A stretch of 13,863 bases of DNA from a virus, in the IMG/VR virus record IMGVR_UViG_3300024999_000044, positions 128,001 through 141,863 of that record. The stretch is one strand, 5' to 3'. The notes beneath the pieces were generated by a model, which worked only from the letters and a program-made list of their open reading frames with translations, was not told where the DNA came from and did not search any database. Positions 920-13,589 of the stretch are shown here, one piece after another (within the stretch, counting starts at the first letter, position 1; the number at the start of each line of letters is the position of its first letter). The translations under genes and the position numbers were made by a program.

Positions 920-944
920 AATTTCAAGGGGTTGGTTTTTTATT

Positions 945-971
945 AGGAGGGGTTCGCCCCTCCTAATTTTA
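945..971 (+). terminator. Rho-independent terminator or attenuator-like hairpin directly after the ThyA-like gene
   Basis: aggagggg-ttcg-cccctcct is an 8-bp G/C-rich stem with a UUCG tetraloop. It is followed by aatttta. Only 14 nt separate it from the next start codon, so partial read-through is likely. Confidence 0.55.
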
Positions 972-985
972 TACGGAGGTGTACT

Positions 986-1396
986 GTGAAAATACATGTT
1001 GGTGGCAAGAACATAGTGGCAGTTGATTTTGATGGGACTATAACGGAAATAGTGGGAAATGGATATCATGTTGGATATACCTTGAAACTCAGGAGGCACT
1101 GCAAAGAGGTGTTACTAGATCTCCACCGTAATGGAGTAAGACTGATCCTATGGACTTGCAGGACAGGAGTAGCGTTAGAGGAAGCGATCCTCTTTTTAAA
1201 AGAGGAGGGACTTTTTCATGTGTTTAGTTCTGTTAATGATCATCTACCTGAGGTAATTGAGGAATGGTTATTAAAGGGCTGTGAGTTATCAAGAAAGGTG
1301 TATGCTGATGTGTACATTGATGACCATAACCAAACACAAGAACTGGATTGGCATGCAATAGAAGATCAATTATGGAAGAAATGGGGAAGGTATTAA
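986..1396 (+). CDS. Small HAD-superfamily phosphatase (candidate 5'-(deoxy)nucleotidase)
   Basis: GTG start at 986 with SD ggagg at 975-979, spacer 6. All four HAD motifs are present in order. Motif I is VAVDFDGTIT (DxDGT). Motif II is ILWTCRTG (Thr). Motif III is SRKVYAD (Lys). Motif IV is VYIDDHN (DD). The protein is 136 aa with no cap domain. Confidence 0.75.
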   Translation: MKIHVGGKNIVAVDFDGTITEIVGNGYHVGYTLKLRRHCKEVLLDLHRNGVRLILWTCRTGVALEEAILFLKEEGLFHVFSSVNDHLPEVIEEWLLKGCELSRKVYADVYIDDHNQTQELDWHAIEDQLWKKWGRY

Positions 1397-1921
1397 ATGG
1401 AATATAGCAATGAGTACCATAATCGTTGCAATGCATCACAACATCCTGAGGGAGACTTTAACCAAGATACTACACCCAGCGACCTGACGCAAAATGATTT
1501 CACTAAGTTGTTCGAGAGTTTAAAGTGGTTAAAAGATATGAATCCTAGATCAGACAATCAAGCCATGCAGGAAATTATACCACTCTTACTTGCTGTTCAG
1601 TATGATAAAGAGGGTTCATACGGGAACAGCTGGTGTAAGCACGGTGAAGTAAGATCCATCTTGCCAAATATTGATCGTAAGTACGACAGATTAGACACTA
1701 TAGTGCAGTCAGAACTAAATGGTTCCAGACCTAAATTACCTAACAACAGGCCATCGAGCATGTCAAATGAACAATTTGACAGCTTAGTGGGAGAGAGCAA
1801 AATTGATGCGGTTGCGGATTTAGCTAACTATTGTATTTTATATATGGGGTGGTTAAAGAAAAATTACCCAGATGCCTTTGACACATGGGTAAGGAAAAAT
1901 GTTCCTGGGTATGCTTGGTAA
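1397..1921 (+). CDS. Hypothetical protein; possible all-alpha NTP-pyrophosphatase-like (MazG / DUF1599-like) fold
   Basis: ATG at 1397 abuts the TAA of the HAD gene. SD gaagg at 1386-1390, spacer 6. The string YGNSWCKHGEVRSILPNIDRKYDRLDTIV followed by IDAVADLANYCILYMGWL resembles, from memory, the YGxSW...G...DKxxRL / DxLxDLxNY pattern of DUF1599 / MazG-like proteins. No EExxE motif was identified, so the assignment is tentative. Confidence 0.5.
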   Translation: MEYSNEYHNRCNASQHPEGDFNQDTTPSDLTQNDFTKLFESLKWLKDMNPRSDNQAMQEIIPLLLAVQYDKEGSYGNSWCKHGEVRSILPNIDRKYDRLDTIVQSELNGSRPKLPNNRPSSMSNEQFDSLVGESKIDAVADLANYCILYMGWLKKNYPDAFDTWVRKNVPGYAW

Positions 1922-2107
1922 AAGTATAACTGCCCCTTTCTTCCATCAACGTAATACCCCAGGTACAACAAAAATGTTTTAACATGTCTGGGGAGAGGAT
2001 TTTTCTGTGGGTGGTTTTTTAAGTCAGAAGGGTCACAGCAAGAGAACTTACTTAATATGTGAGGGAAACCTGAGTGCGCCACTATAACAATATTAGGGGG
2101 AAGCAAA

Positions 2108-2452
2108 ATGAATAAGCAGGACATAGTGAAAGCCATTTCCAAAGACACCGGACTTACCCAAGTATCAATCAATAAAACAATTTCTTCGCTAGAGAAATTG
2201 GTGGGGGAACTCTTAGCTCAAGGTGAGAGAGCCCAGCTTACCGGATTTGTAACTTTTAAACCTGTATACCGTGCGGCTCGTAAGGGCTTTGATCCCATTA
2301 ATAAGGTTCCTATGGATATCGCTCCTGCAATCGGTGTATCGGTCAAGGCCGGGGATAAGATTCGTAAGGCCACTGAGGGCTTGGACGTATCTAAGTTTGC
2401 ACCTGCTCCAGGTGAGGTAATCGAACCTGAAGAGGACGAAACAGTAGTTTAA
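2108..2452 (+). CDS. HU/IHF-family (type II) DNA-binding protein, TF1-like, with an acidic C-terminal tail
   Basis: SD aggggg at 2095-2100, spacer 7. The N-terminus MNKQDIVKAISKDTGLTQVS is typical of HU. The arm region GFVTFKPVYRAARKGFDPINKVPMDIAPAIGVSVKAG matches the HU/IHF beta-arm consensus. From memory, the DTGLTQVS, QLTGF, KPVxRxARKGF, IAPxxGVSVKxG and KAxEGL strings are nearly the same as phage SPO1 TF1. The tail PEEDETVV is acidic. Confidence 0.85.
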   Translation: MNKQDIVKAISKDTGLTQVSINKTISSLEKLVGELLAQGERAQLTGFVTFKPVYRAARKGFDPINKVPMDIAPAIGVSVKAGDKIRKATEGLDVSKFAPAPGEVIEPEEDETVV

Positions 2453-2479
2453 TACTAAATTTAAGTGACCGCCGGCTTT

Positions 2480-2506
2480 AAACCCCTAAGTAATACTTAG
2501 GGGTTT
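2480..2506 (+). terminator. Perfect 12-13 bp hairpin downstream of the HU gene (weak terminator or RNA stability element)
   Basis: aaacccctaagt-aat-acttaggggttt is a perfect inverted repeat. The T-run tttttat lies about 20 nt downstream rather than adjacent, so intrinsic termination is uncertain. Confidence 0.4.
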
Positions 2507-2530
2507 CCTAATGCCCGAATAATTTTTATG

Positions 2531-2547
2531 TATATAAAGGAGTGGTG
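2531..2547 (+). promoter_or_regulatory. Conserved tatataaagg-N-(a)gtggtg / aggtg element overlapping the Nudix RBS (copy 1 of 2)
   Basis: tatataaaggagtggtg is at 2531-2547 and the ATG is at 2551. The same 10-mer plus ggtg recurs at 8611-8626 in front of the HD gene. It is AT-rich, resembles a -10 box and the T4 late promoter TATAAATA, and is fused to a Shine-Dalgarno sequence. Confidence 0.35.
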
Positions 2548-2550
2548 CAT

Positions 2551-3126
2551 ATGAATTTGGAAACTTTATGGAAAAATAAGTGGATTTCAATACGTAAGAG
2601 ATCGGATGGGTATACCTATTTACACGAGGACAAATGCAACGGCATGTTGGTGGCCATCTTACCATTTAAATTTCTGGCAAGGGATGAAATGTGCTATCTT
2701 GCTAGGTTTGAAGTTATACCACCACATTTACTGACAGATCAAACATTGCAGGAAGCATCAAAAAATCCACCACCCTCCTGTATCACAGGTGGTGTGGATA
2801 TACCAGATCCTCTTGATCTAGATAGGGAAGTGTTAAGAGAGTTAGAAGAGGAAGCTGGGTATATAGTAGACAAGAGTAAACTAATTTCATTAGGGTCTAT
2901 TAACCAATCTAAGATAGCAGATACAATAATTTACTTGTTCGCTGTAAATGTAACTGGTCTTGGTAAGATTAAACCATTAGGGGACGGCAGTAAATTAGAA
3001 AAAACTGCCAAATGTAAATGGATCACAGAACCATTGGCAATATGGGGATCTGACCCTCTTATGCCAGTTATTTTATTAAGGTTAAAAAATGCAGTAAACA
3101 ATAAGAAGATGTTGATCAAGGGATAA
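2551..3126 (+). CDS. Nudix hydrolase (ADP-ribose / nucleoside-diphosphate pyrophosphatase-like)
   Basis: ATG at 2551 with SD aggag at 2538-2542, spacer 8. The ORF track's 2542 start is a GTG 3 codons upstream. Nudix box: GGVDIPDPLDLDREVLRELEEEAGY matches REUxEExGU exactly and Gx5Ex7 approximately. The N-terminal WISIRKRSDGYTYL...GMLVAILPF is typical of NudF-like enzymes. Confidence 0.8.
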   Translation: MNLETLWKNKWISIRKRSDGYTYLHEDKCNGMLVAILPFKFLARDEMCYLARFEVIPPHLLTDQTLQEASKNPPPSCITGGVDIPDPLDLDREVLRELEEEAGYIVDKSKLISLGSINQSKIADTIIYLFAVNVTGLGKIKPLGDGSKLEKTAKCKWITEPLAIWGSDPLMPVILLRLKNAVNNKKMLIKG

Positions 3127-3182
3127 GTTTATATACCTACTATATGTGGGTATTTTTATGTCAGGAGTGAAGTTTTGGAGTT

Positions 3183-3214
3183 CCCTCCTTTTTAATAAAA
3201 AGGGGGAGTTTACA
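3183..3214 (+). terminator. Rho-independent terminator after the Nudix gene
   Basis: ccctccttttt-aat-aaaaagggggag forms a stem of about 10 bp with one G-U pair. It is followed by tttacatt. Confidence 0.5.
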
Positions 3215-3373
3215 TTATGTCATGCCTATGGGCAAATTTGACTGTGAAAGTGGGAGGTATCAATGTTACTCAAGTGGTGATGGGTGTGTATTTATGATGC
3301 CAGATTCCAAAGCCAAAGCATGTGCTGATAGATATGGGGAAGGACCCGATGCAACTAATGAGGAGGAATAATA

Positions 3374-3829
3374 ATGTTTCCAATACAAATACATCAGTTG
3401 GAACCCAAGGTAGTATCTACATTTGTGCGCACTGATAACACCTCTATAAAGGCTGCGCCTAGAGTTAAGTGGTCTAAACGTAATCGAGACAAAGTAACTA
3501 AACTCATGAAGCAGATCGGTAAGCTGCGTAAAGAAGGTCTATTGGAGTATGAAAGGGTGTGTTCCGAAAGAATTGAGTACAGACCCATTACTATAGATCT
3601 AGACAGACTATCGGAGTTTATGCATGACAGGTTGCGATATTTTCATGCTAAGGAACATGTTGAGATAGAGACTATCATTATGGGTAAAAGGTATTATCAG
3701 CATTATATTGATGGGGTGGTTAAATCTTCATTCTATGTGCCAATAGCCAAGTATAATTTCAGTGGCATAAGGGTGCTAATTGATCCCCTAATTGATGGTA
3801 TGGTTTTTGTGAGAAAGGAAACTACATGA
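3374..3829 (+). CDS. Hypothetical protein (151 aa), first gene of a translationally coupled trio ending in the DNA polymerase
   Basis: Strong SD aggagg at 3361-3366, spacer 7. No recognisable motif. The TGA at 3827-3829 overlaps the ATG at 3826 of the next ORF (ATGA). Confidence 0.65.
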   Translation: MFPIQIHQLEPKVVSTFVRTDNTSIKAAPRVKWSKRNRDKVTKLMKQIGKLRKEGLLEYERVCSERIEYRPITIDLDRLSEFMHDRLRYFHAKEHVEIETIIMGKRYYQHYIDGVVKSSFYVPIAKYNFSGIRVLIDPLIDGMVFVRKETT

Positions 3830-4005
3830 TTAAGATAGAAGAAGATGGTAAGAGTTTTTGTAACTGTTGTGATGCCAGAGACACTAATAATCCTAAAAGA
3901 GTATTGTTTGTAAGGGGAAGTTCTAATGCTATAGCTCTTACTCTCTGTAAGACTTGCAGGGAAGACTTATTAGACCTACTTCTAAAAGAAGGAGGACACA
4001 TATGA
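3826..4005 (+). CDS. Small zinc-ribbon protein (59 aa), absent from the ORF track
   Basis: The translation is MIKIEEDGKSFCNCCDARDTNNPKRVLFVRGSSNAIALTLCKTCREDLLDLLLKEGGHI. It has two Cys pairs (CNCC and CKTC) separated by 25 residues. SD-like gagaaaggaa at 3811-3820. ATGA overlap at both ends: with the upstream ORF at 3826-3829 and with the polymerase start at 4002-4005. Confidence 0.5.
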   Translation: MIKIEEDGKSFCNCCDARDTNNPKRVLFVRGSSNAIALTLCKTCREDLLDLLLKEGGHI

Positions 4006-6800
4006 GTTGCACTGAATGTAAATTACACACCCAGTGTAAGAATGTAAGACAAATGGGGTCTGGAAAGAAATCTGCTAGAATCATGGTAGTATCTGAATCA
4101 CCATACCAGACCGAGAATTTAAGGAACCAGCATATGTCAGGTAAGGGTGGAAGGTTACTTAGGGCATTACTTTCTGATGTGGAAATAGATCTTGATGATG
4201 TGTATTTCACAACAGTAGTTAAGTGCTCCACCCCAGAGGATAGACTGCCAAAACCTGATGAAATAGATGCATGCAAAGATTACTTACTATCTGAAATAGA
4301 TGTGATCCAGCCTGAGATTATTGTGCCGACAGGTAACATAAGTATGAAGGTAACTATGGGGCTTGTTGGTATCACTAAGCACAGAGGTAAAATGATAGAA
4401 AAAGACGGGATTAAATATTTTCCCATCATTCACCCCAACTTTGTGTTGAAGCAGCCAAAATGGCTAGAAATTTTTGGCAAGGACATAGAGAACCTGTCGA
4501 TCATCCTGAATGGAAGGGACATGGATCAAGAAGGTTCTCAGCCAGAGGAACGTAGATATTGTGACACGTATGAAGAAGCTATTGATGAGTTGTGGAGATT
4601 GATAAAGCTACCACCTTCACGTATAGTAGTGGACATAGAGGCAAAAAACTTAAATCCTTGGAAGGCAGATTCTAAGGTACTCAGTATCGGATTCTCTGAC
4701 AGACCAGGATATGCAAGTGTAATATGTCTTTATCATCGGGACACCCCTTTTACAGGTAACCAAATAGGAACCATGGTAAAGTTTCTGAGATTCTTGTTTC
4801 AGAACACTCTACATGAGTTTATTGAGCAGTATGGTAAGTTTGACACTAAATATCTCCTTATCAGTCTAGGTATTGTGACCATCAATTTTAAGTGGGACCC
4901 TATGCTAATGCATTATATTGGAGTCACTGAGGAAAGTGGTACTCATGGTTTAAAAGACTTCGCATGGCAATACACCAATAAAGGTGGGTATGACAACGAA
5001 TTAGATGATTTTAAGAAGACGCTGCCAGAAAAGGATAGATACAATTACGACCTGATTCCTTGGAACATATTAAAGCCTTACAATGGCATGGACTGTGATG
5101 TAACCTACAGGGTGTTTGATCAACTACTCCCTGTAATAGAAGATGGGGATGAAGACATTAGATGGTTGTACCATAACATCATGATACCAGGATCTATGGC
5201 TTTACAAACCATCGAAATTAATGGAATGTATGTAGATACTAAATGGTTAGATTTTCTAAACGAAAAATACCCAGAAGAGATTGAGAGGATATCTGACAAA
5301 TTACATCAGTTCCCTGAGGTTCTTTCAGTAGAAAGAGAGTATGATAGTAAATGGGAAGAAAGATGTAATATTGGGCTTATAAAGAAAGCTGTGCGCACAG
5401 AGGAACAGCAGGATAAATTTGAAAAGTACAAGAGGTATGATCCATCTAAGAGGGGAAACAAGTTCAAATTTAGCTCTACTCAGCAGTTGCAGGAACTCCT
5501 GTATGTCCGTCTCGGACTGAGGGGTGAGATGCTAACTGAGAAGGGTGAGGATTTTCGTAAGGAAAATGGCATAAGCATGAAGAGATTAAAGGAGCTACCC
5601 TACACATGTTTTAGCACTAGTGATGATGCTCTAAAGGGGTTGGCTAAACAACACCCTATGCCAGAAATACTGCAAGAATTTAGGAAAGCTAACCATCTAA
5701 TGAACAACTTTGTAAGGGGTATGTATGAAAACTTAACTCCAGATGGTCTTGTACACCCCACTATGAATATTCATGGCACAGCCACTGGACGTACTAGCTC
5801 CAATGACCCTAACGCCCAGCAATTCCCACGCAAGGTCAGTAGTCCCCTTCTGTTTCAATATCACCATGAAATAAAAAGATTATTTGTCTCTCGCTTTGGG
5901 GAAGATGGGGTAATCATACAATTAGACTATTCTCAGGTGGAAGTAAGAATCTTAGCGGTGTTGGCAGATGATGATGTCCTTAAGAATTTGTTTAAAAGTG
6001 GTATTGACATCCATATTGATAATGCTTCAGATGCATTCGGTATCCCTGCCAGCGAAGTCACTAAAGACCAACGTACAGCCAGTAAAAAAGTTACCTTTGG
6101 CATCATCTATCAAGAATCTCCACAAGGCTTATCTGATGACTTAAAAATGGAAGGAATCATAATGTCTAAGGCGGAGTGTGCTGATTTCATTGCTAAGTGG
6201 TTTAAGAAATTTGTTAAGAGCGATAAATGGATTAAAAACACTAAGAGAATGGTCAGAATAGAAAAGCAGGTTAAAAATGCTTTAGGTCGTATACGCCACC
6301 TGCCAACTATTGATTCCACTGAAGATTCAATACGAGGGGAGGCTGAACGCCAAGCCTGCAATAGTCCTATCCAATCTACATCCGCTGACATAACCTTAAT
6401 GGCATTAATCCAAATAAACAAATGGTTAAAAGATACCAACAAGCGTTCTGTTATATTTGTAACAGTTCATGACTCTATCGGTTTAGACTGCCCCAAAGAT
6501 GAAGTATTAGAAGTATCCTCGCATGTTAAGTACATTATGGAGAATATCTCAGAATACAATGAGAAGTATAAATTCCTAGGAGATATGCCTCTTGTGGTAG
6601 ATCTAGAAATCGGGTATGACTACGGGACCTTATATGAGTGCAAGGGGTATAATCTAGAAGAGATTGGGGTAGACAATTTTATCCAATCTCAACAAGCTAA
6701 GAAAGCTGCAAAGGAACAAGAGGCGTATTCTAAGGCTGAAGCTTCTGGCACCATAATACCAAAATTTGCATACTCATACTGGAACAAGGTTTCTTCATAG
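4002..6800 (+). CDS. DNA polymerase I-type (family A) with an N-terminal degenerate uracil-DNA-glycosylase family-4 domain and an active-looking 3'-5' exonuclease domain (SPO1-type polymerase architecture)
   Basis: Preferred start is ATG 4002 (SD aggagg at 3990-3995, spacer 6, ATGA coupling). The ORF track's ATG 3954 has no SD. UDG4-like N-terminal domain: CTECKLHTQC plus VVKCSTPEDRLP...DAC correspond to the Fe-S Cys ligands and vkCRPPxNRxPxxxExxxC. MVVSESPYQTE replaces GEGPGxxE. GKGGRLL corresponds to GxAGxLL. IHPNFVLK corresponds to HPSxxLR. 3'-5' exonuclease motifs: ExoI VVDIEAKNL, ExoII YGKFDTKYLL, ExoIII YNGMDCDVTYRVF. Polymerase motifs: A is LDYSQVEVRILAVLADDD, B is RTASKKVTFGIIYQESPQGL, C is VTVHDSIGLD. 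Confidence 0.9.
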   Translation: MSCTECKLHTQCKNVRQMGSGKKSARIMVVSESPYQTENLRNQHMSGKGGRLLRALLSDVEIDLDDVYFTTVVKCSTPEDRLPKPDEIDACKDYLLSEIDVIQPEIIVPTGNISMKVTMGLVGITKHRGKMIEKDGIKYFPIIHPNFVLKQPKWLEIFGKDIENLSIILNGRDMDQEGSQPEERRYCDTYEEAIDELWRLIKLPPSRIVVDIEAKNLNPWKADSKVLSIGFSDRPGYASVICLYHRDTPFTGNQIGTMVKFLRFLFQNTLHEFIEQYGKFDTKYLLISLGIVTINFKWDPMLMHYIGVTEESGTHGLKDFAWQYTNKGGYDNELDDFKKTLPEKDRYNYDLIPWNILKPYNGMDCDVTYRVFDQLLPVIEDGDEDIRWLYHNIMIPGSMALQTIEINGMYVDTKWLDFLNEKYPEEIERISDKLHQFPEVLSVEREYDSKWEERCNIGLIKKAVRTEEQQDKFEKYKRYDPSKRGNKFKFSSTQQLQELLYVRLGLRGEMLTEKGEDFRKENGISMKRLKELPYTCFSTSDDALKGLAKQHPMPEILQEFRKANHLMNNFVRGMYENLTPDGLVHPTMNIHGTATGRTSSNDPNAQQFPRKVSSPLLFQYHHEIKRLFVSRFGEDGVIIQLDYSQVEVRILAVLADDDVLKNLFKSGIDIHIDNASDAFGIPASEVTKDQRTASKKVTFGIIYQESPQGLSDDLKMEGIIMSKAECADFIAKWFKKFVKSDKWIKNTKRMVRIEKQVKNALGRIRHLPTIDSTEDSIRGEAERQACNSPIQSTSADITLMALIQINKWLKDTNKRSVIFVTVHDSIGLDCPKDEVLEVSSHVKYIMENISEYNEKYKFLGDMPLVVDLEIGYDYGTLYECKGYNLEEIGVDNFIQSQQAKKAAKEQEAYSKAEASGTIIPKFAYSYWNKVSS

Positions 6801-6900
6801 TCAGGAACACCAATTATATCCCTAACCCTTAAGAATCAAACGGAACCTTTCGGAGTAAACTTTTTGAAACGAGGTTTTGGAGTATCCTTAATAGGGGGGA

Positions 6901-7059
6901 ATGATGAGTTTGGTGGAAAAGAAAATATATCACTTGGTTAACAGCAGCAATAGCATACGGGTTAAGTGTACTGAAAAATATCTGCCACATTGGCTGGCTC
7001 GTGGATTCGAGGTGGAATTCATAGAATTTAAGAACGTAGATTTGTCACAGGATAATTAG
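6901..7059 (+). CDS. Small hypothetical ORF (52 aa) between the polymerase and its terminator, absent from the ORF track
   Basis: ATGATG at 6901/6904 is preceded by gggggga at 6894-6900. The translation is MMSLVEKKIYHLVNSSNSIRVKCTEKYLPHWLARGFEVEFIEFKNVDLSQDN, ending TAG 7057-7059. A strong terminator follows 20 nt later. No homology is recognisable. Confidence 0.3.
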   Translation: MMSLVEKKIYHLVNSSNSIRVKCTEKYLPHWLARGFEVEFIEFKNVDLSQDN

Positions 7060-7078
7060 TATAAGTTTTCTTACGAAA

Positions 7079-7113
7079 GTCTGCTCTCCTTAATAGGGGG
7101 AGCAGACTTTTTG
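7079..7113 (+). terminator. Strong rho-independent terminator ending the polymerase transcription unit
   Basis: gtctgctctcc-ttaata-gggggagcagac is an 11-bp stem with one G-U pair, followed by ttttt. It shares the tgctctcctt 10-mer with the terminator at 8581-8610. Confidence 0.8.
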
Positions 7114-7169
7114 CGTGCAGATTTTTTAATCTGATGAGACTCCACTCAGCAGGAAGTGAGGTGCGTATA

Positions 7170-7607
7170 ATGAAAGAATTACGAGTGAAAGTAAAATTAT
7201 CTTCAGATCGAATACTAGATGTGGATATAAGTAAAGAACTCACTATAGACACTAACAACCTGAGTAAAGAGTTGGTGTCTCAGGCAGGTAAGTATGCTTG
7301 GTGGGCGGTAGCTGAAGAACTTTCTAGGAAAAAGGTGGACATGGATCATAACTCTATTGATAATATAAAACAGGAGTTATCACAAGAGTATGGAAACCAA
7401 AATTATTTAGGTGACAGACGCTTAAAGAAGGCAGTATCTAGGTATGTCAGATCCAACATACAACATTCCTTTTTACTTCTTATTAAAGAAGCGTTTGAGC
7501 ATAAACGGGACACATTAATGTTACTGAGGGATAATCAGTCTTATGAGGGTGTTCTGCGCAGTTACAACTCAACCATATCCTATTATCTAATGGCACTCGG
7601 GGCGTAA
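7170..7607 (+). CDS. Probable UvsY-like recombination mediator protein
   Basis: Preferred start is ATG 7170 (SD gaggtg at 7158-7163, spacer 6). The ORF track's 7134 start lacks an SD. The segment IDTNNLSKELVSQAGKYAWWAVAEELSRKKVDM aligns by eye to T4 UvsY IDSTKLQYEAANNVMLYSKWLNKHSSIKKEM, sharing ID.t.L...Y..W.....KK.M. Length is about 145 aa, close to UvsY. It lies directly upstream of the gp32-like SSB. Confidence 0.4.
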   Translation: MKELRVKVKLSSDRILDVDISKELTIDTNNLSKELVSQAGKYAWWAVAEELSRKKVDMDHNSIDNIKQELSQEYGNQNYLGDRRLKKAVSRYVRSNIQHSFLLLIKEAFEHKRDTLMLLRDNQSYEGVLRSYNSTISYYLMALGA

Positions 7608-7645
7608 CGCCCACTTTGCCAAGTAAAGAAAGTGAGGAATTTAAA

Positions 7646-8554
7646 ATGGCAGGATTAGACATTGCGAAGTTAGCGAAACGATTAGAGGAACTTAATACTA
7701 AGAATACTAGTGGTGGAGGGGCCAACTTCATAGACCTAAAAGATGGAAGAAATGTGGTTCGTGTGTTACCACCTGCGGAAGGCAAGGAAGACTTTGCCCA
7801 AGAAGCATTTGTGCACTATGGGGTAGGTAAGACAGAAACTAACAAAAAGGGTACCATGATTGTATGCCCTACAACACATGGAGATAACAAACGCTGTCCA
7901 GTGTGCGATGCCTCTAAAGAATTCAAGGCCCTCTCTAAGAAGAAAGACGATGCCATGTCCAAGCAATCTAATGAGCTGTACCGGAAAAAACGTGTATACA
8001 TGAATGCCATCGACAGATCTGTTGACATCGAGGCCCTAGCTAGGGATGCCGAGGGGAACTACCTAGACCCTGATGGGAAAATATTCAATCCGGTTCAGAT
8101 CTTAGCAGTTGGAACTACAGTGTACAAGTCAATAATCGGTATTATATGTGATCCAGATTATGGAGACATCACTGACCCTGTTACAGGTTTGGATATTATC
8201 ATAACCAAAGCGGGTACTGGGATGAATACGGATTATGAGACTAAGACCGTTCGTAAGGAATCCCCTATTGGTTTTAGCGAGTGGAACGCAAAGTTAAACG
8301 ATTTGTCCACTTACGCTGTGTGTAAAACTTACAAAGAAATTCTAGGAATACTAAATGGGGACGAGCCGGACGAAGACGAGCCCGAAACTACTTCTAGTAC
8401 ATCCTCCAGATCCACTGACACAACTCAGGATACTACTCCCCCAAAGGAAAATACATCCACAGGGGATGGTGGCTCTGGTGATACTGGGGAATCTGATGAA
8501 GCTAGGATGGAACGAGAGATTGCGGAAGCCTTAGCAAAACGTAAGGCTAGGTAA
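7646..8554 (+). CDS. T4 gp32-like single-stranded DNA-binding protein (zinc-binding, acidic C-terminal tail)
   Basis: Preferred start is ATG 7646 (SD gtgagga at 7632-7638, spacer 7). The ORF track's 7616 start is a TTG. RVLPP matches gp32 RFLP. CPTTHGDNKRCPVCD matches the gp32 zinc motif C..STHGDYDSCPVC. The C-terminus is acidic and Ser/Thr-rich: DEPDEDEPETTSSTSSRSTDTTQDTT...GESDE. Confidence 0.8.
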   Translation: MAGLDIAKLAKRLEELNTKNTSGGGANFIDLKDGRNVVRVLPPAEGKEDFAQEAFVHYGVGKTETNKKGTMIVCPTTHGDNKRCPVCDASKEFKALSKKKDDAMSKQSNELYRKKRVYMNAIDRSVDIEALARDAEGNYLDPDGKIFNPVQILAVGTTVYKSIIGIICDPDYGDITDPVTGLDIIITKAGTGMNTDYETKTVRKESPIGFSEWNAKLNDLSTYAVCKTYKEILGILNGDEPDEDEPETTSSTSSRSTDTTQDTTPPKENTSTGDGGSGDTGESDEARMEREIAEALAKRKAR

Positions 8555-8580
8555 GGCTATAAAAGAAACATTGTGCATAG

Positions 8581-8610
8581 AAGGAGAGCAGACGTGCTCT
8601 CCTTTTTTAC
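8581..8610 (+). terminator. Rho-independent terminator after the SSB gene
   Basis: ggagagca-gacg-tgctctcc is an 8-bp stem followed by ttttttac. Confidence 0.8.
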
Positions 8611-8626
8611 TATATAAAGGCAGGTG
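8611..8626 (+). promoter_or_regulatory. Conserved tatataaagg-caggtg element (copy 2 of 2) immediately after the terminator and upstream of the HD gene
   Basis: Identical 10-mer tatataaagg as at 2531, again followed by aggtg/ggtg. The GTG start is at 8635. There is no room for a -35 box because the preceding bases are the terminator stem. This fits a -10-only (T4-late-like) promoter or a translational operator. Confidence 0.35.
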
Positions 8627-8634
8627 TTCTTCCA

Positions 8635-9426
8635 GTGAAACGAATAGAATTAGAAATAGAGCCAATCAGTGTATTTGGGTGGGAGTTAGATAAAATAGTC
8701 AATGAGCAGTGGCGTAGCATGTGTGCCCTAGCTTTGTACCGAGCACCTAATTATTTTTGGACAGCCCCTGCTAGCACCTCTGGTAAGTACCACCCTAGAA
8801 CTTCATTAGGAATGGGGGGATTAATCAACCATACTAAGGCTGCATTTTTAGTGGCTGAAAACCTGTTCACTAATGAGACATGTGCCCCTTTTACGGATGA
8901 ACAAAAAGATATAATAAGAATAGCTATAATACTACATGATTGCTGTAAGCAGGGGTTTGATGGGTTGGGGCATACAGCACCAAATCATCCCATGCTTGTT
9001 AGATCGTTGCTGAAGGTATTTGAGCCTGAAGATTTAGAGGTTGTGTGGGATGACATATGTGGTTGCATAGACTCGCATATGGGACAGTGGAACACAAATA
9101 AGGAAAAGGTAGAAATATTACCAAAGCCACAAACAGAAATGCAGAAATTTGTGCATTTATGTGACTTTATTGCATCCCGCAAGGATATAGAAGTAGATGT
9201 AAACAGAAGAGAAGGTCATACTAAGGAAGAATCTGCGTGGAAAGATGAAAGGGCTTCAGAAGGGCAGATAAACTTTATTGCAATCTTAGTTAAAAAGGCT
9301 ACGGATTCCGGTGTATCCTACAGTAATCTTCCCTTCAATGATGTGGGGGTTGATACACTTACTAAAGGATTAGCTTCCGATATAATCACCGCATACAAGA
9401 AGGTGTTGGGGATGGGGGATAAATAA
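8635..9426 (+). CDS. HD-domain metal-dependent phosphohydrolase (candidate dNTP/dNMP hydrolase)
   Basis: GTG start at 8635 with aggtg at 8622-8626, spacer 8. HD-domain signature in order: KYHPRTSLGMGGLINHTKAAF (first His), IAIILHDCCKQG (the HD doublet), DSHMGQW (His), VHLCDFIASRKD (distal Asp). The C-terminal ~80 aa are unassigned. Confidence 0.7.
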   Translation: MKRIELEIEPISVFGWELDKIVNEQWRSMCALALYRAPNYFWTAPASTSGKYHPRTSLGMGGLINHTKAAFLVAENLFTNETCAPFTDEQKDIIRIAIILHDCCKQGFDGLGHTAPNHPMLVRSLLKVFEPEDLEVVWDDICGCIDSHMGQWNTNKEKVEILPKPQTEMQKFVHLCDFIASRKDIEVDVNRREGHTKEESAWKDERASEGQINFIAILVKKATDSGVSYSNLPFNDVGVDTLTKGLASDIITAYKKVLGMGDK

Positions 9427-9434
9427 TACCAAAG

Positions 9435-9468
9435 AGCAGGAGTCAAAATCAGACCTCCTGCTTTTTTA
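9435..9468 (+). terminator. Rho-independent terminator after the HD gene
   Basis: agcaggagtc-aaaatca-gacctcctgct is an 8-10 bp stem with a one-base bulge, followed by tttttta. Confidence 0.75.
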
Positions 9469-9489
9469 TGGAGAAGGGGGAAATTTGAG

Positions 9490-9882
9490 ATGATGCGTGA
9501 ATTGGTATTATTTAACACGATTGAAGATATTAAGAAGTTTATACACGACCAGGGATACACTTATATACACCAGCTGTATAACCAAAATGAGATGGTATTA
9601 CCTGGAGTGTATCTTCCAATCTTATCAGAGGAGCAGTTTAAACCCTATGGAATTAATTTTGAGTATGTAGATAAGCCTTGTTCACTAGAGGAACTATTAA
9701 ACAAGCACAATCCCTGGAGTGGTGTAGGTCATATAAGAGGTAAACACAAGAGTGTAAACATCAATCCATCTTCTGAAGTAAGGAGATGCATAAACAGTGT
9801 GATTCAGAGTGGTGGTATTCACCCTAATTTTCACATGTTTTACACTCGTAGAACAGGGAGTGATATTGCTGATGAAACGTAA
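9490..9882 (+). CDS. Hypothetical protein (130 aa); its 3' end overlaps the sigma-factor start by 11 nt
   Basis: ATGATG at 9490, with aggggg at 9474-9479 upstream. No recognisable motif. The TAA at 9880-9882 lies downstream of the sigma ATG at 9872, indicating translational coupling. Confidence 0.55.
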   Translation: MMRELVLFNTIEDIKKFIHDQGYTYIHQLYNQNEMVLPGVYLPILSEEQFKPYGINFEYVDKPCSLEELLNKHNPWSGVGHIRGKHKSVNINPSSEVRRCINSVIQSGGIHPNFHMFYTRRTGSDIADET

Positions 9883-11020
9883 TCCGTATCTAGAAGGGAC
9901 ACCTGATGAGTTTATTGTCAACAATATGAATTTGGCTAGAGACGTAGCATGGCCCTTCATAAGGGCTTCATTTGGTAACCCTGCTAATACTTTTACTAAA
10001 GAAGACTTGTTATCAATAGCGTGTGAAGGCTTAATAAAAGCATACCAGAGATTTGATCCTACTAAATATGAAGGTGAGGGTGGTGAAGGAGTCAAGTTCA
10101 GCACGTATGCCATACCAGTGATTAGGGGTACCCTAATGGTAAATCTGAGGGACTTGAACTCTATGATAAGACCTAGCAGAGAATCCCTTGCTCTCTTGAC
10201 TTTAGTTAGAAAGTCGGGGCTGACTTCCAATTCTCCAATTAGTGAGCTGGTAGAAAAGGCAGGATTAACGGTTAAGGAAGCAATGGCAGTCAGCAGGTCC
10301 ACTAAATTGTCTGTGGTGGATAGCTTAGATCGTCCACTGGAAACTGATGACGGAGGTATAGTGTTTGGAGATACTATTCCTTTAAGGAATGAAGATAGTG
10401 AAAAATTATTAATCCTTAGTGACTTTATACGACGTTTAGAACCTCGACTTCAGAGGGTGTATCAGTTGCGCGTAGCAGAGGGCAAGTCACAAGCTGAAGT
10501 AGGAAGAGCCTTAAAACTCAGTCAAGTTCAGGTTGGTAGATTAGAGTATCAGTTGTTTTCGTACGCTGAACAATATGGGAAGGAAGAAAAAATGCTGAAG
10601 ATTCCAATACCCTCACGATCAGAGGGTTGGGGTAGTTCTCAGAATTACCCTAGGGAATGTAAAGAACGAGCTATAGAGTTATCTAAGACGCATGTACAAG
10701 CTGGACAAATAGTTAAGAAAATTGCTGAAGAATTCCCCGGAGAAACCATACCACCGAGCTCCATACACAACTGGGTGAGTCACTCTAGAAAGAAATTGGG
10801 GATCATAGTAGAACCGAGCACTAAGAGATCTAGAAAATATTCTATTGAAGCGGAAAACAGAGCAAAGGAACTGTTGAGTAGGGGGGTAAGTAGTAGGGAA
10901 GTGTGTAACATGCTGAGGGCGGAGTTCCCAAAGGAGAACATACCAGCATCATCGGTGTACGTTTGGGGAAGCAGGATAAGAGCAGATCTGTACAAGAAAG
11001 AAATGAATGGAGGGAAATAA
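9872..11020 (+). CDS. RNA polymerase sigma factor, SigF/SigG-like sigma-70 family, with a C-terminal extension of two tandem transposase-like HTH repeats
   Basis: Preferred start is ATG 9872. The ORF-track start at 9809 would add a hydrophobic 21-aa leader encoded inside the previous ORF. Region 2: LLSIACEGLIKAYQRFDP...KFSTYAIPVIRGTLMVNLRD matches the sporulation-sigma pattern. Region 4.2: LQRVYQLRVAEGKSQAEVGRALKLSQVQVGRLEYQ. The sigma fold ends after about 245 aa. A further ~140 aa then contain two similar ~55 aa modules: ECKERAIELSKTHVQAGQIVKKIAEEFPGETIPPSSIHNWVSHSRKKLG and IEAENRAKELLSRGVSSREVCNMLRAEFPKENIPASSVYVWGSRIRADL. Both resemble the IS3-type transposase N-terminal HTH. Confidence 0.8.
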   Translation: MKRNPYLEGTPDEFIVNNMNLARDVAWPFIRASFGNPANTFTKEDLLSIACEGLIKAYQRFDPTKYEGEGGEGVKFSTYAIPVIRGTLMVNLRDLNSMIRPSRESLALLTLVRKSGLTSNSPISELVEKAGLTVKEAMAVSRSTKLSVVDSLDRPLETDDGGIVFGDTIPLRNEDSEKLLILSDFIRRLEPRLQRVYQLRVAEGKSQAEVGRALKLSQVQVGRLEYQLFSYAEQYGKEEKMLKIPIPSRSEGWGSSQNYPRECKERAIELSKTHVQAGQIVKKIAEEFPGETIPPSSIHNWVSHSRKKLGIIVEPSTKRSRKYSIEAENRAKELLSRGVSSREVCNMLRAEFPKENIPASSVYVWGSRIRADLYKKEMNGGK

Positions 11021-11953
11021 ATGTCTCATACACTGGTAATTGATGGAAATAACATTGCTAGCAGGGCCTACCACACTCCCCAAGGGGAGCTACGCTCCCG
11101 TAAGGGGGAACCCACGGGTACTATTCTTGGTACTTTAAACTCATTAAAAGGGTATCTTGAAAAGTTTCAAGATGCCACACGTATGGTGGTAGTGTGGGAT
11201 TACGGAAAATCGGCAGAGCGTATGAAGCTGCACCCTGGCTACAAAATGAACCGTGATCACACTAGAGATGACCATACTCCGGAGGAAATACTAAAATTTG
11301 AAGAGTATAAGTGGCAAATGAATGAGATACACAAATTTCTTCCCAGCTTAGGCATAAACTCCCTGAAGGTTAAGGGTTGGGAAGCAGATGACCTTGTATA
11401 CGCTACAGTTTGTCTATTAGATGGCAGAAAGACCATTATTTCTTCAGACAAAGATATGCTCCAATTAATAAATGAAGAGGTGTCCGTGTTTGACCTATAT
11501 AAGGATATTATTGTGGGACCTCATAACTTTGAGGTGAAGACTGGGGGGGTAAGTCAGAAATGCTATCTTGGATACAGATCTTTATTGGGGGATGATTCAG
11601 ATAATATCGGGGGTGTACCTGGTATTGGTAAGGTTACTGCTAAAAAGCTTATGGACACTTACGGACATATAGACATCATGTTTAAGGATAAAAACAATCT
11701 CATGGCCAAGTCTAGAACTGCTGCCATATTCAAGCCTGAAAATCTAGCCATCATAGGTAGAAATCACAAATTGATGAATTTAGGTTACGTGAACTACGGG
11801 GACATACGTGAAGACATACTAGGCATGATAACCCCGAGACATGAGTTAAACACCCAAGGGGTTAAGGACTTTTTCATGAGGCTGGAGTTTGTATCTGTGA
11901 TGTCTAATTTCACCAGTTGGATGACTTATTTTAGGCTATTGGGGGAGGACTAA
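11021..11953 (+). CDS. 5'-3' exonuclease / flap endonuclease (T4 RNase H / T5 D15 / PolA N-terminal domain family)
   Basis: SD ggaggg at 11009-11014, spacer 6. The ATG directly follows the sigma TAA. Family motifs present: LVIDGNNIASRAY, VVVWDYG, YKMNRD, GWEADDLVYAT, ISSDKDMLQL, GDDSDNIGGVPGIGKVTAKKL. Confidence 0.85.
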   Translation: MSHTLVIDGNNIASRAYHTPQGELRSRKGEPTGTILGTLNSLKGYLEKFQDATRMVVVWDYGKSAERMKLHPGYKMNRDHTRDDHTPEEILKFEEYKWQMNEIHKFLPSLGINSLKVKGWEADDLVYATVCLLDGRKTIISSDKDMLQLINEEVSVFDLYKDIIVGPHNFEVKTGGVSQKCYLGYRSLLGDDSDNIGGVPGIGKVTAKKLMDTYGHIDIMFKDKNNLMAKSRTAAIFKPENLAIIGRNHKLMNLGYVNYGDIREDILGMITPRHELNTQGVKDFFMRLEFVSVMSNFTSWMTYFRLLGED

Positions 11954-11955
11954 AA

Positions 11956-12156
11956 ATGCTAGAGGAATGTAGATATTGCGGGTTTAAGCATGTTGACCAG
12001 TCATGTGTAGAATTTAAGAGAAACCATGTCAGCAATAGGGTGAACCCATATTGCACCAAGTGTGGCAGAAGACTATATAATGAAAAGGTAAGAGAACTAA
12101 GAGGAAGTGGTACTGAATGCACCATGAGAAGTCTTTCTTGTAGCCATGCTACTTAA
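11956..12156 (+). CDS. Small zinc-ribbon protein (66 aa)
   Basis: SD ggggagg at 11942-11948, spacer 7. The translation is MLEECRYCGFKHVDQSCVEFKRNHVSNRVNPYCTKCGRRLYNEKV.... It contains CRYCG and CTKCG (CxxC...CxxC), spaced 25 residues apart. Confidence 0.5.
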   Translation: MLEECRYCGFKHVDQSCVEFKRNHVSNRVNPYCTKCGRRLYNEKVRELRGSGTECTMRSLSCSHAT

Positions 12157-12170
12157 AAGGATTAGGATAG

Positions 12171-12198
12171 AGCCTCCCATAGGGGAGGCTTGATTTTT
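12171..12198 (+). terminator. Rho-independent terminator
   Basis: agcctccc-atag-gggaggct is an 8-bp stem followed by tgattttt. Confidence 0.75.
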
Positions 12199-12320
12199 CA
12201 CCTGTTTTGTGAGAAAATTAAAGAGAGGATTAATTCAACTAGTATAAAATATATGGCTTTTTACTGTTTGGAGTAAATTCTCATACTTTGGATTTAATTA
12301 AAAATGAGGGGGCAAACATA

Positions 12321-13589
12321 TTGGAAATACGTTTAATTGAAGAATGTTTCAATCTTTTTGAGGCTATTGGTAGTACCGCTTCTCGTAATATAAAAGCTGA
12401 GTACATTAAGACTGGCATGGAGAATCAAGCATTTCGCAAATTAGTTGAAGCCACCTACAACCCCTTCAGGATGTACAATATTAAGAAAGTACCGGAAGTT
12501 CTTAGCCCCTGTGATTGTGGGACTCATGAAGACAGGTTTACCATGTTCATGGATCTATTGCAGGATCTACAAGACCGAAAGCTGACTGGTAATATTGCTG
12601 TTGATGCTGTGTTTATATTTTTTAATTTATGCTCTAGCACTGAGGTCAAATGGTACTCCAAGGTACTCCAGAAGGATCTTAAAATTGGAGTGACGGACAA
12701 GAGTATTAATAAAGCTGAAAAGGGATTCATACCTACATTTGACTGCATGTTGGCACATCCATTTAAAAAATGGCCCAAACGATTTATTGAGGAGATCAAA
12801 TGGGATGGATACAGATGCCTGGGATTCCATCTAGATGATGATACGGTAGAGTTATTCACACGGAATGGGCACCGAATACTTGGGTACACAGGAATAGAGT
12901 ATGAACTTAAATTGAATACTGCTAAGGGGTTTGTATATGATGGAGAGATCGTGTCCAGAGATGAGTCATTTAATTCCACCCAAAAGGATATATTCAAGTT
13001 AGGAAAAACCGATAAAGATGGTGTGCTAAACATCTTTGACATGATACCAATACAAGAGTTCAAAGCAGGTAAAGGAACTCAACCATTGTATAGGAGACTT
13101 AGATCCATGTCAGTGAGTATTAATACTGAAGGTGCCAATTTCTTAAATCGTGAACTGCCAGGTAAGTTTTTTACTCCAGATGACGAAGAGGAAGTCCTGA
13201 AGGCATATGCAACCCTCACGGATGCAGGATACGAAGGTGCTATGATCAAGGATCTTGATGCTGTGTATGAGTGTAAACGCACATATTCATTACAAAAGCT
13301 AAAGCCTATGGAGACAATTGACCTAGTGGTCATTGGTGTGGAAGAAGGTAAAAAGGGTACTGATCTTGAAGGAACGTTGGGAGCTTTAGTAGTGGATTTT
13401 GAGGGTAACTCCGTCAATGTAGGCTCCGGGTTTAAGAAAAAGAATGGAGAAAGAGATAACCTGTGGGCTAGACGTAATGATCTCATAGATAGGACTATTG
13501 AGATAAGATACCAGGAGATTACCAGCAACCAGAAAGGTACAAAATCTCTGCGGTTCCCTACATTTGTCAGGTTCAGAGACGACAAATAG
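12321..13589 (+). CDS. ATP-dependent DNA ligase, T4 gp30-like, with an N-terminal DNA-binding domain
   Basis: There is no in-frame ATG before residue 43. TTG at 12321 has the SD gaggggg at 12306-12312, spacer 8. This start gives M-E-I-R-L-I-E-E-C-F-N-L-F-E-A-IGST, which is collinear with the T4 ligase MILKILNEIASIGST. An alternative TTG at 12288 is in frame but has no SD. RKLTGNIAVDAV matches T4 RKLTGNAAIEEL. Motif I is EEIKWDGYRC (KxDGxR). Confidence 0.8.
   Translation: MEIRLIEECFNLFEAIGSTASRNIKAEYIKTGMENQAFRKLVEATYNPFRMYNIKKVPEVLSPCDCGTHEDRFTMFMDLLQDLQDRKLTGNIAVDAVFIFFNLCSSTEVKWYSKVLQKDLKIGVTDKSINKAEKGFIPTFDCMLAHPFKKWPKRFIEEIKWDGYRCLGFHLDDDTVELFTRNGHRILGYTGIEYELKLNTAKGFVYDGEIVSRDESFNSTQKDIFKLGKTDKDGVLNIFDMIPIQEFKAGKGTQPLYRRLRSMSVSINTEGANFLNRELPGKFFTPDDEEEVLKAYATLTDAGYEGAMIKDLDAVYECKRTYSLQKLKPMETIDLVVIGVEEGKKGTDLEGTLGALVVDFEGNSVNVGSGFKKKNGERDNLWARRNDLIDRTIEIRYQEITSNQKGTKSLRFPTFVRFRDDK

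Follow-up and report, generated by a model that had tools for sequence, protein, structure and literature searches.

Promoter choice is normally split between two kinds of proteins: the sigma factor reads the -10 and -35 elements, and separate activators or the C-terminal domain of the RNA polymerase alpha subunit (alpha-CTD) read the upstream DNA. The DNA just upstream of the -35 element is the usual place of alpha-CTD and of class I and class II activators. A DNA-binding protein that is tied to sigma can redefine this upstream promoter element, as in the case of MotA/AsiA of T4. The Caulobacter protein GcrA is a sigma70 cofactor with an N-terminal helix-turn-helix (HTH)-type DNA-binding domain and a sigma-interacting domain (PMC4647560, PMC5887438, PMC9976885). 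Sigma factors of the extracytoplasmic function (ECF) type can carry C-terminal extensions (ECF41, ECF42, ECF238 and others), regulatory additions of the SnoaL-like, TPR, Cys-rich or transmembrane type, among which no HTH is described (PMC7826278). A survey of jumbo phages lists only minimal and RpoD-like phage sigma types (PMC7824862), and no published description of a phage sigma factor with C-terminal HTH modules was found in the open-access full-text literature. Here, such a gene is described from a 13,863-nucleotide stretch of viral DNA, positions 128,001 to 141,863 of the IMG/VR record IMGVR_UViG_3300024999_000044. The whole stretch is called the window, and coordinates are numbered from its first letter.

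The gene encodes a protein of 382 amino acids (P0001) in which a sigma core is followed, in the same frame, by two tandem HTH modules. The extension is 146 residues long when counted from the end of the last sigma helix and 142 when counted from the methionine at residue 241 (M241). The two modules (about residues 257-313 and 321-377) align without gaps, with a BLOSUM62 score of 88 against 22 +/- 4 in 2000 shuffles, none of which reached it, and they share the signature RKY(P/S).E...RA.EL......(E/Q)(I/V).......EFP.E.IP.SS...W.S..R. The tandem repeat and the fusion therefore exceed chance, and the two similar in-frame modules, together with the motif that the first-pass annotation had read in them, are borne out. 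Both modules are basic (pI 9.3-9.4), as is the linker between them, and the pI of the whole extension is 9.8. The explanation that is favored, with moderate confidence, is that this single polypeptide is a group-3 sigma factor of a SPO1-like phage that carries two basic homeodomain-like HTHs as a built-in DNA-binding arm for the region upstream of -35.

The modules are also predicted to fold as HTHs. In an AlphaFold2 (AF2) model of the whole protein, built with an alignment of 36 sequences (mean predicted local distance difference test score, pLDDT, 86), they form two separate three-helix bundles with a pLDDT of about 86-96, bordered by disordered stretches at residues 251-256 and 316-320. The secondary structure was unchanged when residues 255-382 were modelled separately. 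The failure to fold that had been named as a possible refutation is thus not seen. The predicted template modelling score (pTM) of the whole model is 0.40 despite the high local confidence, and the domains are therefore taken as not packing against each other. A 7-amino-acid insertion, EEFPGET, is present in the turn between helices 2 and 3 of window-type modules.

The fusion is conserved. The identical 382-amino-acid protein is encoded on contigs of three independent assemblies (ENA ERZ27254726 and ERZ909594, and Logan SRR3309324); ERZ909594 is a groundwater metagenome, and two of the three contigs are about 141.8 kb. The relative P0002 (430 amino acids, 54% identity) keeps both modules, and the same gene order is found in three further assemblies (L007-L009). 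Between P0001 and P0002, identity is 56% in module 1, 54% in module 2 and 57% in the sigma core but only 23% in the linker between sigma and modules, indicating that both modules are under constraint, since they are as conserved as the core and the linker is far less so. Each module is about 55% identical to its orthologue in P0002 and about 33% identical to its sister in the same protein, which argues that the duplication predates the split of the two phages and that both copies were kept. A stop codon between the sigma and HTH parts, which would have betrayed a sequencing or frameshift fusion, is absent from the closest relatives and the independent assemblies. The proposed comparison with related sigma genes gave a mixed picture: the parts are fused in the closest relatives, but an analogous extension is a separate gene in one distant relative (L020). 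No near-identical DNA in cultured phages was found by megablast.

Homologous fusions occur in cultured phages as well. A tblastn search against 50,697 phage records matched 134 records, mostly of Bacillus phages, and the alignment enters the extension in two groups. In Tsarbombavirus (PBC6, BC01, BCP78, BCU4, BCP12, MarvelLand and others), the two HTH modules of the 566-amino-acid sigma factors are followed by a tail of about 180 amino acids, and the extension lies inside the sigma coding sequence in 15 of the 15 records that contain it. In Bequatrovirus (Riley, Troll, Phrodo and others), the sigma factors have 301 amino acids and one C-terminal HTH. Comparison of the window-type module profile with that of the Bacillus-phage modules gave an hhalign probability of 88% (E 3e-6); judged by these profiles, the modules of the window are homologous to the C-terminal modules of the Tsarbombavirus and Bequatrovirus sigmas. 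PHROG 351 ('RNA polymerase sigma factor') aligns up to residue 308 of the window protein, that is, through module 1. These Bastillevirinae sigmas, all from Herelleviridae-type phages, share with the window protein a group-3 core and an acidic/Lys-rich linker before one (Riley) or two (PBC6) short HTH modules. However, they are only 25-27% identical to the window protein, their modules do not have the EEFPGET insertion, the Tsarbombavirus proteins have the extra tail, and their genes lie beside a second sigma gene elsewhere in the genome, whereas the gene of the window is part of the replication block. The cultured homologues (PBC6_104, BCP78_0108 and Riley gp201) have been annotated only as 'sigma factor' or 'SigF-like'.

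The start of the gene is well defined. The frame is open from a GTG at 9809 up to the stop codon at 11018-11020, and the ATG at 9872 is taken as the right start because all relatives have N-termini (MDKNPHLPGTPDEF...) with which the one read from it (MKRNPYLEGTPDEF) aligns and because the same ATG was chosen by independent gene callers on three assemblies. The gene overlaps an upstream open reading frame (ORF) of 130 amino acids (9490-9882) by 11 nucleotides, and its stop adjoins the ATG at 11021 of a 5'-3' exonuclease gene; it is therefore packed into an operon. The features of the gene are collected in Table 1. On the opposite strand, a 201-amino-acid ORF (9697-10302, -) overlaps the sigma gene and is taken as a mechanical ORF, since all called genes of the block are on the + strand.

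Table 1. Features of the sigma gene in the window (SD, Shine-Dalgarno)
Feature	Coordinates	Strand	Basis
Whole gene: sigma and two C-terminal HTH modules	9872..11020	+	Frame reading, homologue alignment, three assemblies
Sigma region 2 (residues 42-94)	9995..10153	+	Pfam PF04542; invariant FSTYA.P.I.G...R..RD motif
Region-3-like helical segment (residues 103-146)	10178..10309	+	AF2 helices 103-114, 123-130, 134-146; NCBIfam SigBFG alignment
Sigma region 4, predicted -35-binding HTH (residues 181-225)	10412..10546	+	Pfam PF08281; PF04545 weak
SD-like run, 5-nucleotide spacer and in-frame ATG (M241), candidate internal start	10577..10594	+	Sequence reading, duplex energy
Flexible linker from sigma region 4 to module 1 (residues 237-258, KEEKMLKIPIPSRSEGWGSSQN)	10580..10645	+	AF2 pLDDT <50 at 251-256
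HTH module 1 (residues 259-310)	10646..10801	+	AF2 helices 261-271, 277-287, 295-308; pI 9.4
Basic inter-module linker (residues 311-322, IIVEPSTKRSRK)	10802..10837	+	AF2 pLDDT <50 at 316-320; pI 11
HTH module 2 (residues 323-382), last helix long	10838..11017	+	AF2 helices 325-336, 341-351, 359-380; pI 9.3

The sigma core can be assigned to the sigma-70 family, as the superfamily model TIGR02937 is passed with 61.4 bits (cutoff 42.9). Pfam Sigma70_r2 matches with 25.7 bits (cutoff 24), and Sigma70_r4_2 matches residues 181-220 with 27.1 bits (cutoff 25.7). The NCBIfam model for SigB/F/G (TIGR02980) aligns over residues 15-229, nearly its whole profile, with an E of 4e-24. This continuous alignment and the AF2 helices between residues 103 and 146 indicate that regions 2 and 4 are separated by a region 3. 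A weak match to Pfam Sigma70_r3 is seen only in the relatives P0003 and P0019; the segment is missing in the short relatives of 205-223 amino acids, and the alignment has a gap there in P0004, P0008 and P0010. The last sigma helix is predicted at residues 218-236. The first-pass annotation had labeled the protein SigF/SigG-type: a complete sigma nearest to SigB/F/G is indeed present, but its score lies far below the curated cutoff (85.5 vs. 234 bits), as do those for SigF (TIGR02885, 72.9 vs. 321 bits) and SigG (TIGR02850, 56.4 vs. 457 bits), and the term SigF/G-like is more appropriate. On profile scores, residues 1-236 are a group-3 sigma closest to SigB/F/G without being a member of that subfamily. 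Bacillus SigF and SigG, the best-scoring curated family, match the window protein in the order and size of regions 2, 3 and 4, but they end after region 4, without C-terminal HTH modules. The ECF sigmas with extensions also have an extra domain past region 4 that modifies sigma function, as may be the case here, but they belong to group 4 and have no region 3, whereas the window protein has region 3 and two HTH bundles and is not one of them.

The first-pass annotation compared the modules with the N-terminal HTH of IS3/InsE-type transposases. For the 142-residue fragment, the match to Pfam HTH_Tnp_1 (PF01527) reaches 18.9 bits with a cutoff of 24.1 (E 0.0018; 0.036 for module 1 alone), DUF4817 reaches 17.8 bits with a cutoff of 22.6, and weaker matches are found to HTH_32, HTH_38, HTH_7, HTH_23 and GcrA. 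No insertion-sequence context was seen either: the neighbors are replication genes (HD, exonuclease, ligase), without a transposase. The nearest sequence relatives are homeodomain-like HTHs of the GcrA/HTH_32/HTH_38 kind. As a description of the fold, 'transposase-like' is fair, but the narrower label 'IS3/InsE-type' is not established. A HMMER search with the fragment against 1.84 billion representative proteins returned only six proteins at E <=1e-3, indicating that the window-type module is a rare subtype. The best match outside the family, P0091 (E 2.4e-11), consists of tandem repeats, of which five were aligned, and passes the Pfam cutoffs for GcrA (75.2 vs. 26.9 bits), HTH_32, HTH_38 and HTH_23. 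P0093 has four tandem modules followed by a large C-terminal domain, and P0094 is a eukaryote-like DUF4817 repeat protein. Among 15 aligned modules (the two of the window and those of its relatives), 5 match GcrA (PF07750), with a best E of 1.5e-4; module 1 of the window has no such match.

In structure searches, the best Foldseek matches, none of them significant, are DNA-bound two-part HTH domains, namely Pax6 (probability 0.80), TnsB, MuA, SETMAR and Pax5; Tc3 and TnpE are also among the fold matches. A sequence search of the PDB with the extension gave 0 matches, and the matches of a profile search were limited to designed repeat proteins and, weakly, the GcrA chain 5yiu (E 0.014). The layout in the AF2 model is paired-like, with two three-helix HTH subdomains joined by a linker. 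Taken together, the predicted structures and profiles place the modules as homeodomain-like three-helix HTHs, nearest to GcrA/HTH_32, arranged like a paired or Tc3-type two-part domain. The paired-like domains (Pax; Tc3, mariner and SETMAR; MuA and TnsB) and IS3 OrfA/TnpE likewise have two three-helix HTHs and a short basic linker, but the gene of the window has neither a transposase catalytic domain nor a mobile-element context. As a functional analogue, GcrA is the closest: it is a small monomeric HTH reader of DNA that is held on sigma and adds promoter contacts for RNA polymerase, as is predicted for the window modules, which are related in sequence to GcrA-like repeats via P0091. However, GcrA is not part of the sigma polypeptide and binds region 2 non-covalently, whereas the HTHs of the window are two in number and covalently attached after region 4. 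The window modules themselves stay below the GcrA cutoff, and only about 10 residues follow module 2, leaving no GcrA-type C-terminal sigma-interacting domain.

The core belongs to a lineage of phage sigmas, an informal family recognized by the motif M..NPHLPGT.DEFI...FSTYA.P...A.QYG, in which members P0002-P0016 match with E values from 6e-123 to 1.5e-32. Their genes sit in the replication modules of several unrelated-looking phages, and their C-termini vary. Nothing follows region 4 in P0006, P0007, P0010-P0016, L017, L020 and L023-L027 (202-240 amino acids), one copy of which is in a Desulfosporosinus genome. P0003 has one window-type module and a tail, P0002 has two such modules and a tail, and the window protein has two without variable tails. 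In P0004, P0005, P0008, P0009, L018, L019, L021 and L022, a different HTH-like module is followed by a long tail that is in part Cys-rich and has a conserved helix at its end; a relation between this module in P0004, P0005, P0008 and P0009 and the window-type module is not supported (hhalign probability 3%). In L020 (3001-5445), a short sigma of 205 amino acids and a DNA methyltransferase-like ORF are followed by a separate protein of 345 amino acids (4408-5445), which carries in tandem two copies (E 3e-6 and 1e-5 against P0008) of the HTH-like module that P0008 and P0005 have fused to their sigma, together with the same terminal helix. By Rosetta-stone reasoning, the split in L020 and the fusion in P0008 argue for an extension that works with sigma as a unit of its own. 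No similarity was found between the PBC6 extension and the ORF downstream of the sigma gene in L030, and a scan of IMG/VR and JGI metagenome contigs with module patterns gave no confirmed relative.

Three further observations concern the extensions of these relatives. A conserved terminal amphipathic helix (e.g., EEKWNHIQQEIDELRQLHMKRAKEEFDLQLAQVMG) ends P0003, P0005, P0008, P0009 and the free-standing protein of L020 and is missing in the window protein. The Cys-rich stretches in P0005 and P0009 recall the Cys-rich extensions of ECF sigmas. In L015, another phage from the same sample, with a sigma (P0005) that is extended by a long Cys-rich part, two adjacent proteins of 84 and 121 amino acids (14795-15404) have Pfam matches to the C-terminal domain of the RNA polymerase alpha subunit; with an extended sigma encoded next to them, such alpha-CTD-like phage proteins may mean that the recognition of upstream promoter DNA is altered in other ways as well.

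The phage is uncultured and comes from groundwater and other metagenomes. Positions 20-13589 of the window are colinear with SPO1 genes 29-34 (L012, SPO1 92-113 kb). The gene order is a thymidylate-synthase-like gene, whose SPO1 counterpart is dUMP hydroxymethylase, an HU/TF1-like gene (2108-2452), PolA, a gp32-type single-stranded DNA-binding protein, an HD protein, the 130-amino-acid ORF, sigma, exonuclease and ligase. SPO1_gp51-family genes lie upstream, and a gp33-like and gp34-like pair lies just past the window, the latter 52% identical to SPO1 gp34. Although this is the same kind of phage as SPO1, the sigma of the window has no significant similarity to the middle-gene sigma gp28 of SPO1 (best local BLASTP E 0.069 over 25 residues) and is not of the gp28 type. 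The extension has no homology to gp27, the product of the gene beside gp28, and the SPO1 slot that matches the position of the sigma gene holds gp32.5-32.8. The 'middle' replication block of this phage thus includes a gene for an additional or alternative sigma.

A strand-specific intergenic motif, GGAG(A)-N18-(G/A)TTTTTT(A/G)A, often with an inner (C/T)TTTTTG, is present at 1992-2040 and 7099-7140 of the window and at about 15132-15170 of L004. It is kept at the orthologous sites 2315 and 7403 of L007, upstream of the TF1-like gene and of the counterpart of window gene 7170-7607, in a phage that shares only about 55% protein identity. The form GGAGA-N18-TTTTTT resembles the SPO1 gp28 middle-promoter consensus (AGGAGA-N17/18-TTTNTTT). 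Some of the GGAG matches are terminator hairpins with T runs. A scan of the window for sigma-70-type promoters and terminators showed no enrichment over shuffles.

If the modules form a DNA-binding arm, the sigma core would bind the host core RNA polymerase and place region 4 on the -35 element. The C-terminus of region 4 would face upstream, and the linker of about 20 residues (22 between sigma and module 1, poorly conserved) would bring the DNA from roughly -40 to -70 within range of the HTHs and the basic TKRSRK connector. The pair of modules would occupy two adjacent sites in successive major grooves, as paired-domain and Tc3/mariner two-part HTHs do. The added affinity and specificity would make sigma its own activator and would define a composite promoter class of -10, -35 and upstream half-sites. 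As the gene is inside the SPO1 'middle' replication block, the protein is probably made at middle times and would act on later or accessory genes.

Several points weigh against this explanation. The DNA-binding role of the modules is a prediction with no target motif found: at the GGAGA-N18-TTTTTT motifs no extra upstream repeat is obvious as an HTH target, and nothing there could be assigned to the window sigma, the reading of motifs and sigma genes having covered about 30 kb of the roughly 142-kb genome. Every Pfam match of the window modules is below its gathering cutoff. Three-helix bundles can also serve protein-protein contacts, and the reach beyond -35 is reasoned from general holoenzyme geometry.

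The first alternative is compatible with the DNA-binding arm rather than exclusive of it. Two products could be made from the gene, namely the full-length sigma-HTH2 protein and a free double-HTH protein of 142 amino acids started at M241. The free protein would bind the same sites without recruiting polymerase and could act as a competitor, a timer or a separate regulator, comparable to IS3 OrfA next to OrfAB and Tn5 Inh next to Tnp. This has a lesser, though appreciable, chance of being right. The internal ribosome-binding site proposed in the first-pass annotation is partly confirmed: the in-frame ATG (10592-10594), the purine run gggaaggaag and the 5-nucleotide spacer are present, but the run lies one base off, at 10577-10586, it is weak, and an excess over chance is not shown. 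The duplex with the anti-SD sequence is -7.9 kcal/mol, compared with a median of -10.6 (range -6.4 to -13.7) for 17 real starts in the window, 15 of which are stronger. Among 77 internal in-frame ATGs, however, only 3 are as good, which puts it in the top 4%.

In addition, 7 of 8 lineages have a start codon with an SD-like run in this linker, immediately ahead of the first HTH: M241 in the window, M248 in L007 (aaggaggcaaaaATG, -12.1 kcal/mol), V236 in L014 (GTG, -14.7), M267 in PBC6 (-11.1), M205 in L015 (-7.9), M205 in L019 (-10.8) and V207 in L028 (-11.2), with no such linker start in Riley. An equivalent extension is free-standing in L020, and the recurring Met or Val is suggestive of a functional internal start or of a remnant from an ancestor that had two genes, as L020 does. 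Against this stand synonymous shuffles, in which the six upstream codons were redrawn with each gene's own codon usage (P being the probability that a simulated value is at or below the observed one): P was 0.37 for the window and 0.09, 0.05, 0.27 and 0.50 for others, with a Fisher combination of about 0.08. Since the shuffles reproduce it, the SD-likeness is mostly due to the Lys/Glu/Gly/Arg-rich linker, the composition of which alone gives SD-like strings. In addition, the position of the Met relative to module 1 varies (19 codons before YPRE in the window, 3 in L007), and the search of the 1.84 billion representative proteins yielded no free-standing homologue of the pair of window-type modules. 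Separate expression of the double-HTH protein is therefore unproven.

It is also conceivable, but unlikely, that the modules are a regulatory or protein-binding appendage, serving autoinhibition or docking of a phage or host partner such as an anti-sigma-like protein, an RNA polymerase subunit or the replisome. The ECF extensions (SnoaL-like, TPR, Cys-rich) control sigma activity and not the choice of DNA (PMC7826278), and the tails after the HTH differ widely in the relatives, being Cys-rich in P0005 and P0009 and ending in the terminal helix in P0003, P0005, P0008 and P0009, which suggests a modular regulatory region. The Foldseek matches to DNA-binding domains are, moreover, not significant (E >=0.14), and no significant similarity to Pax or Tc1-mariner domains was found. 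On the other hand, the AF2 model, with its low pTM and high local pLDDT, shows no docking of the modules on the sigma domains, the modules and the linker between them are basic, the families nearest to the modules in sequence are bona fide DNA-binding HTHs, and the window protein has no such variable tail. If the modules were nevertheless regulatory, ECF-style control by a C-terminal extension would widen to group-3 and phage sigmas.

Less probable still is that the protein is a host-directed SigF/SigG mimic that reprograms sporulation or dormancy genes of the host, with the HTH modules as accessories. The best profile matches are SigB/F/G, SigF and SigG, and SigF/G-like phage sigmas of Herelleviridae alter sporulation gene expression and spore yield of the host, one of them being dispensable for lytic growth (PMC9429907). 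The phage also has the gp33/gp34-type late sigma pair, and its intergenic motifs look like SPO1 middle promoters, so that a separate cascade may exist. However, a shared promoter specificity with SigF/G is doubtful because the scores are so far below the curated cutoffs (SigF 72.9 vs. 321 bits), and the gene is embedded in a conserved replication block and translationally linked to its neighbors. No gp28 homologue of the phage was retrieved either, among matches to SPO1 gp28 that were all at least 49% identical, a search limited to close relatives in which a distant copy would be missed.

The weakest alternative, a frameshift or assembly error that joined a sigma gene to a downstream HTH gene, would fit the distant relatives without an extension (205-240 amino acids) and the separate gene of L020, but it is effectively refuted by the identical protein in three independent assemblies (ERZ27254726, ERZ909594, SRR3309324), by P0002, which keeps the fusion at 54% identity in three further ones, and by the extension inside the sigma coding sequence in 15 Tsarbombavirus records; even in L020, the methyltransferase gene separates the two parts.

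The layout is thus real and conserved, and cultured Bacillus phages have it too, although this has gone unremarked; what it does can at present only be inferred. If the DNA-binding arm is true, a sigma with its own two-part HTH would merge the two roles that are normally split. A class of phage genes would then be expected to have promoters of a new, composite architecture, and synthetic biology would have a natural template for orthogonal sigma factors of high specificity. A bolder, rather speculative extension is that uncultured SPO1-like phages, Tsarbombavirus and Bequatrovirus share a widespread unrecognized class of sigma factors whose tethered sequence-specific HTHs read composite promoters and whose linker start gives a competing free HTH protein that times the switch. 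Because homologous fusions occur in cultured, plaque-forming Bacillus phages, the idea is directly testable.

Other features of the region concern the phage more generally. Given its thymidylate-synthase-like and HU/TF1-like genes, the phage may contain hydroxymethyluracil in its DNA and make a DNA-binding protein of the TF1 type. The family A DNA polymerase (4002-6800), with 3'-5' exonuclease and polymerase domains, has an N-terminal domain of the uracil-DNA glycosylase superfamily (PF03167, E 1.2e-20), a layout that is the same in the L007 relative. Downstream of the window, L004 15124-19240 has long non-coding gaps (about 140-740 nucleotides) around an HNH endonuclease gene. These gaps hold T-arm-like strings (GGTTCGACTCCTA) uncalled by ARAGORN, and the one Rfam family at gathering score is a tRNA-Met at L004 17842-17916.

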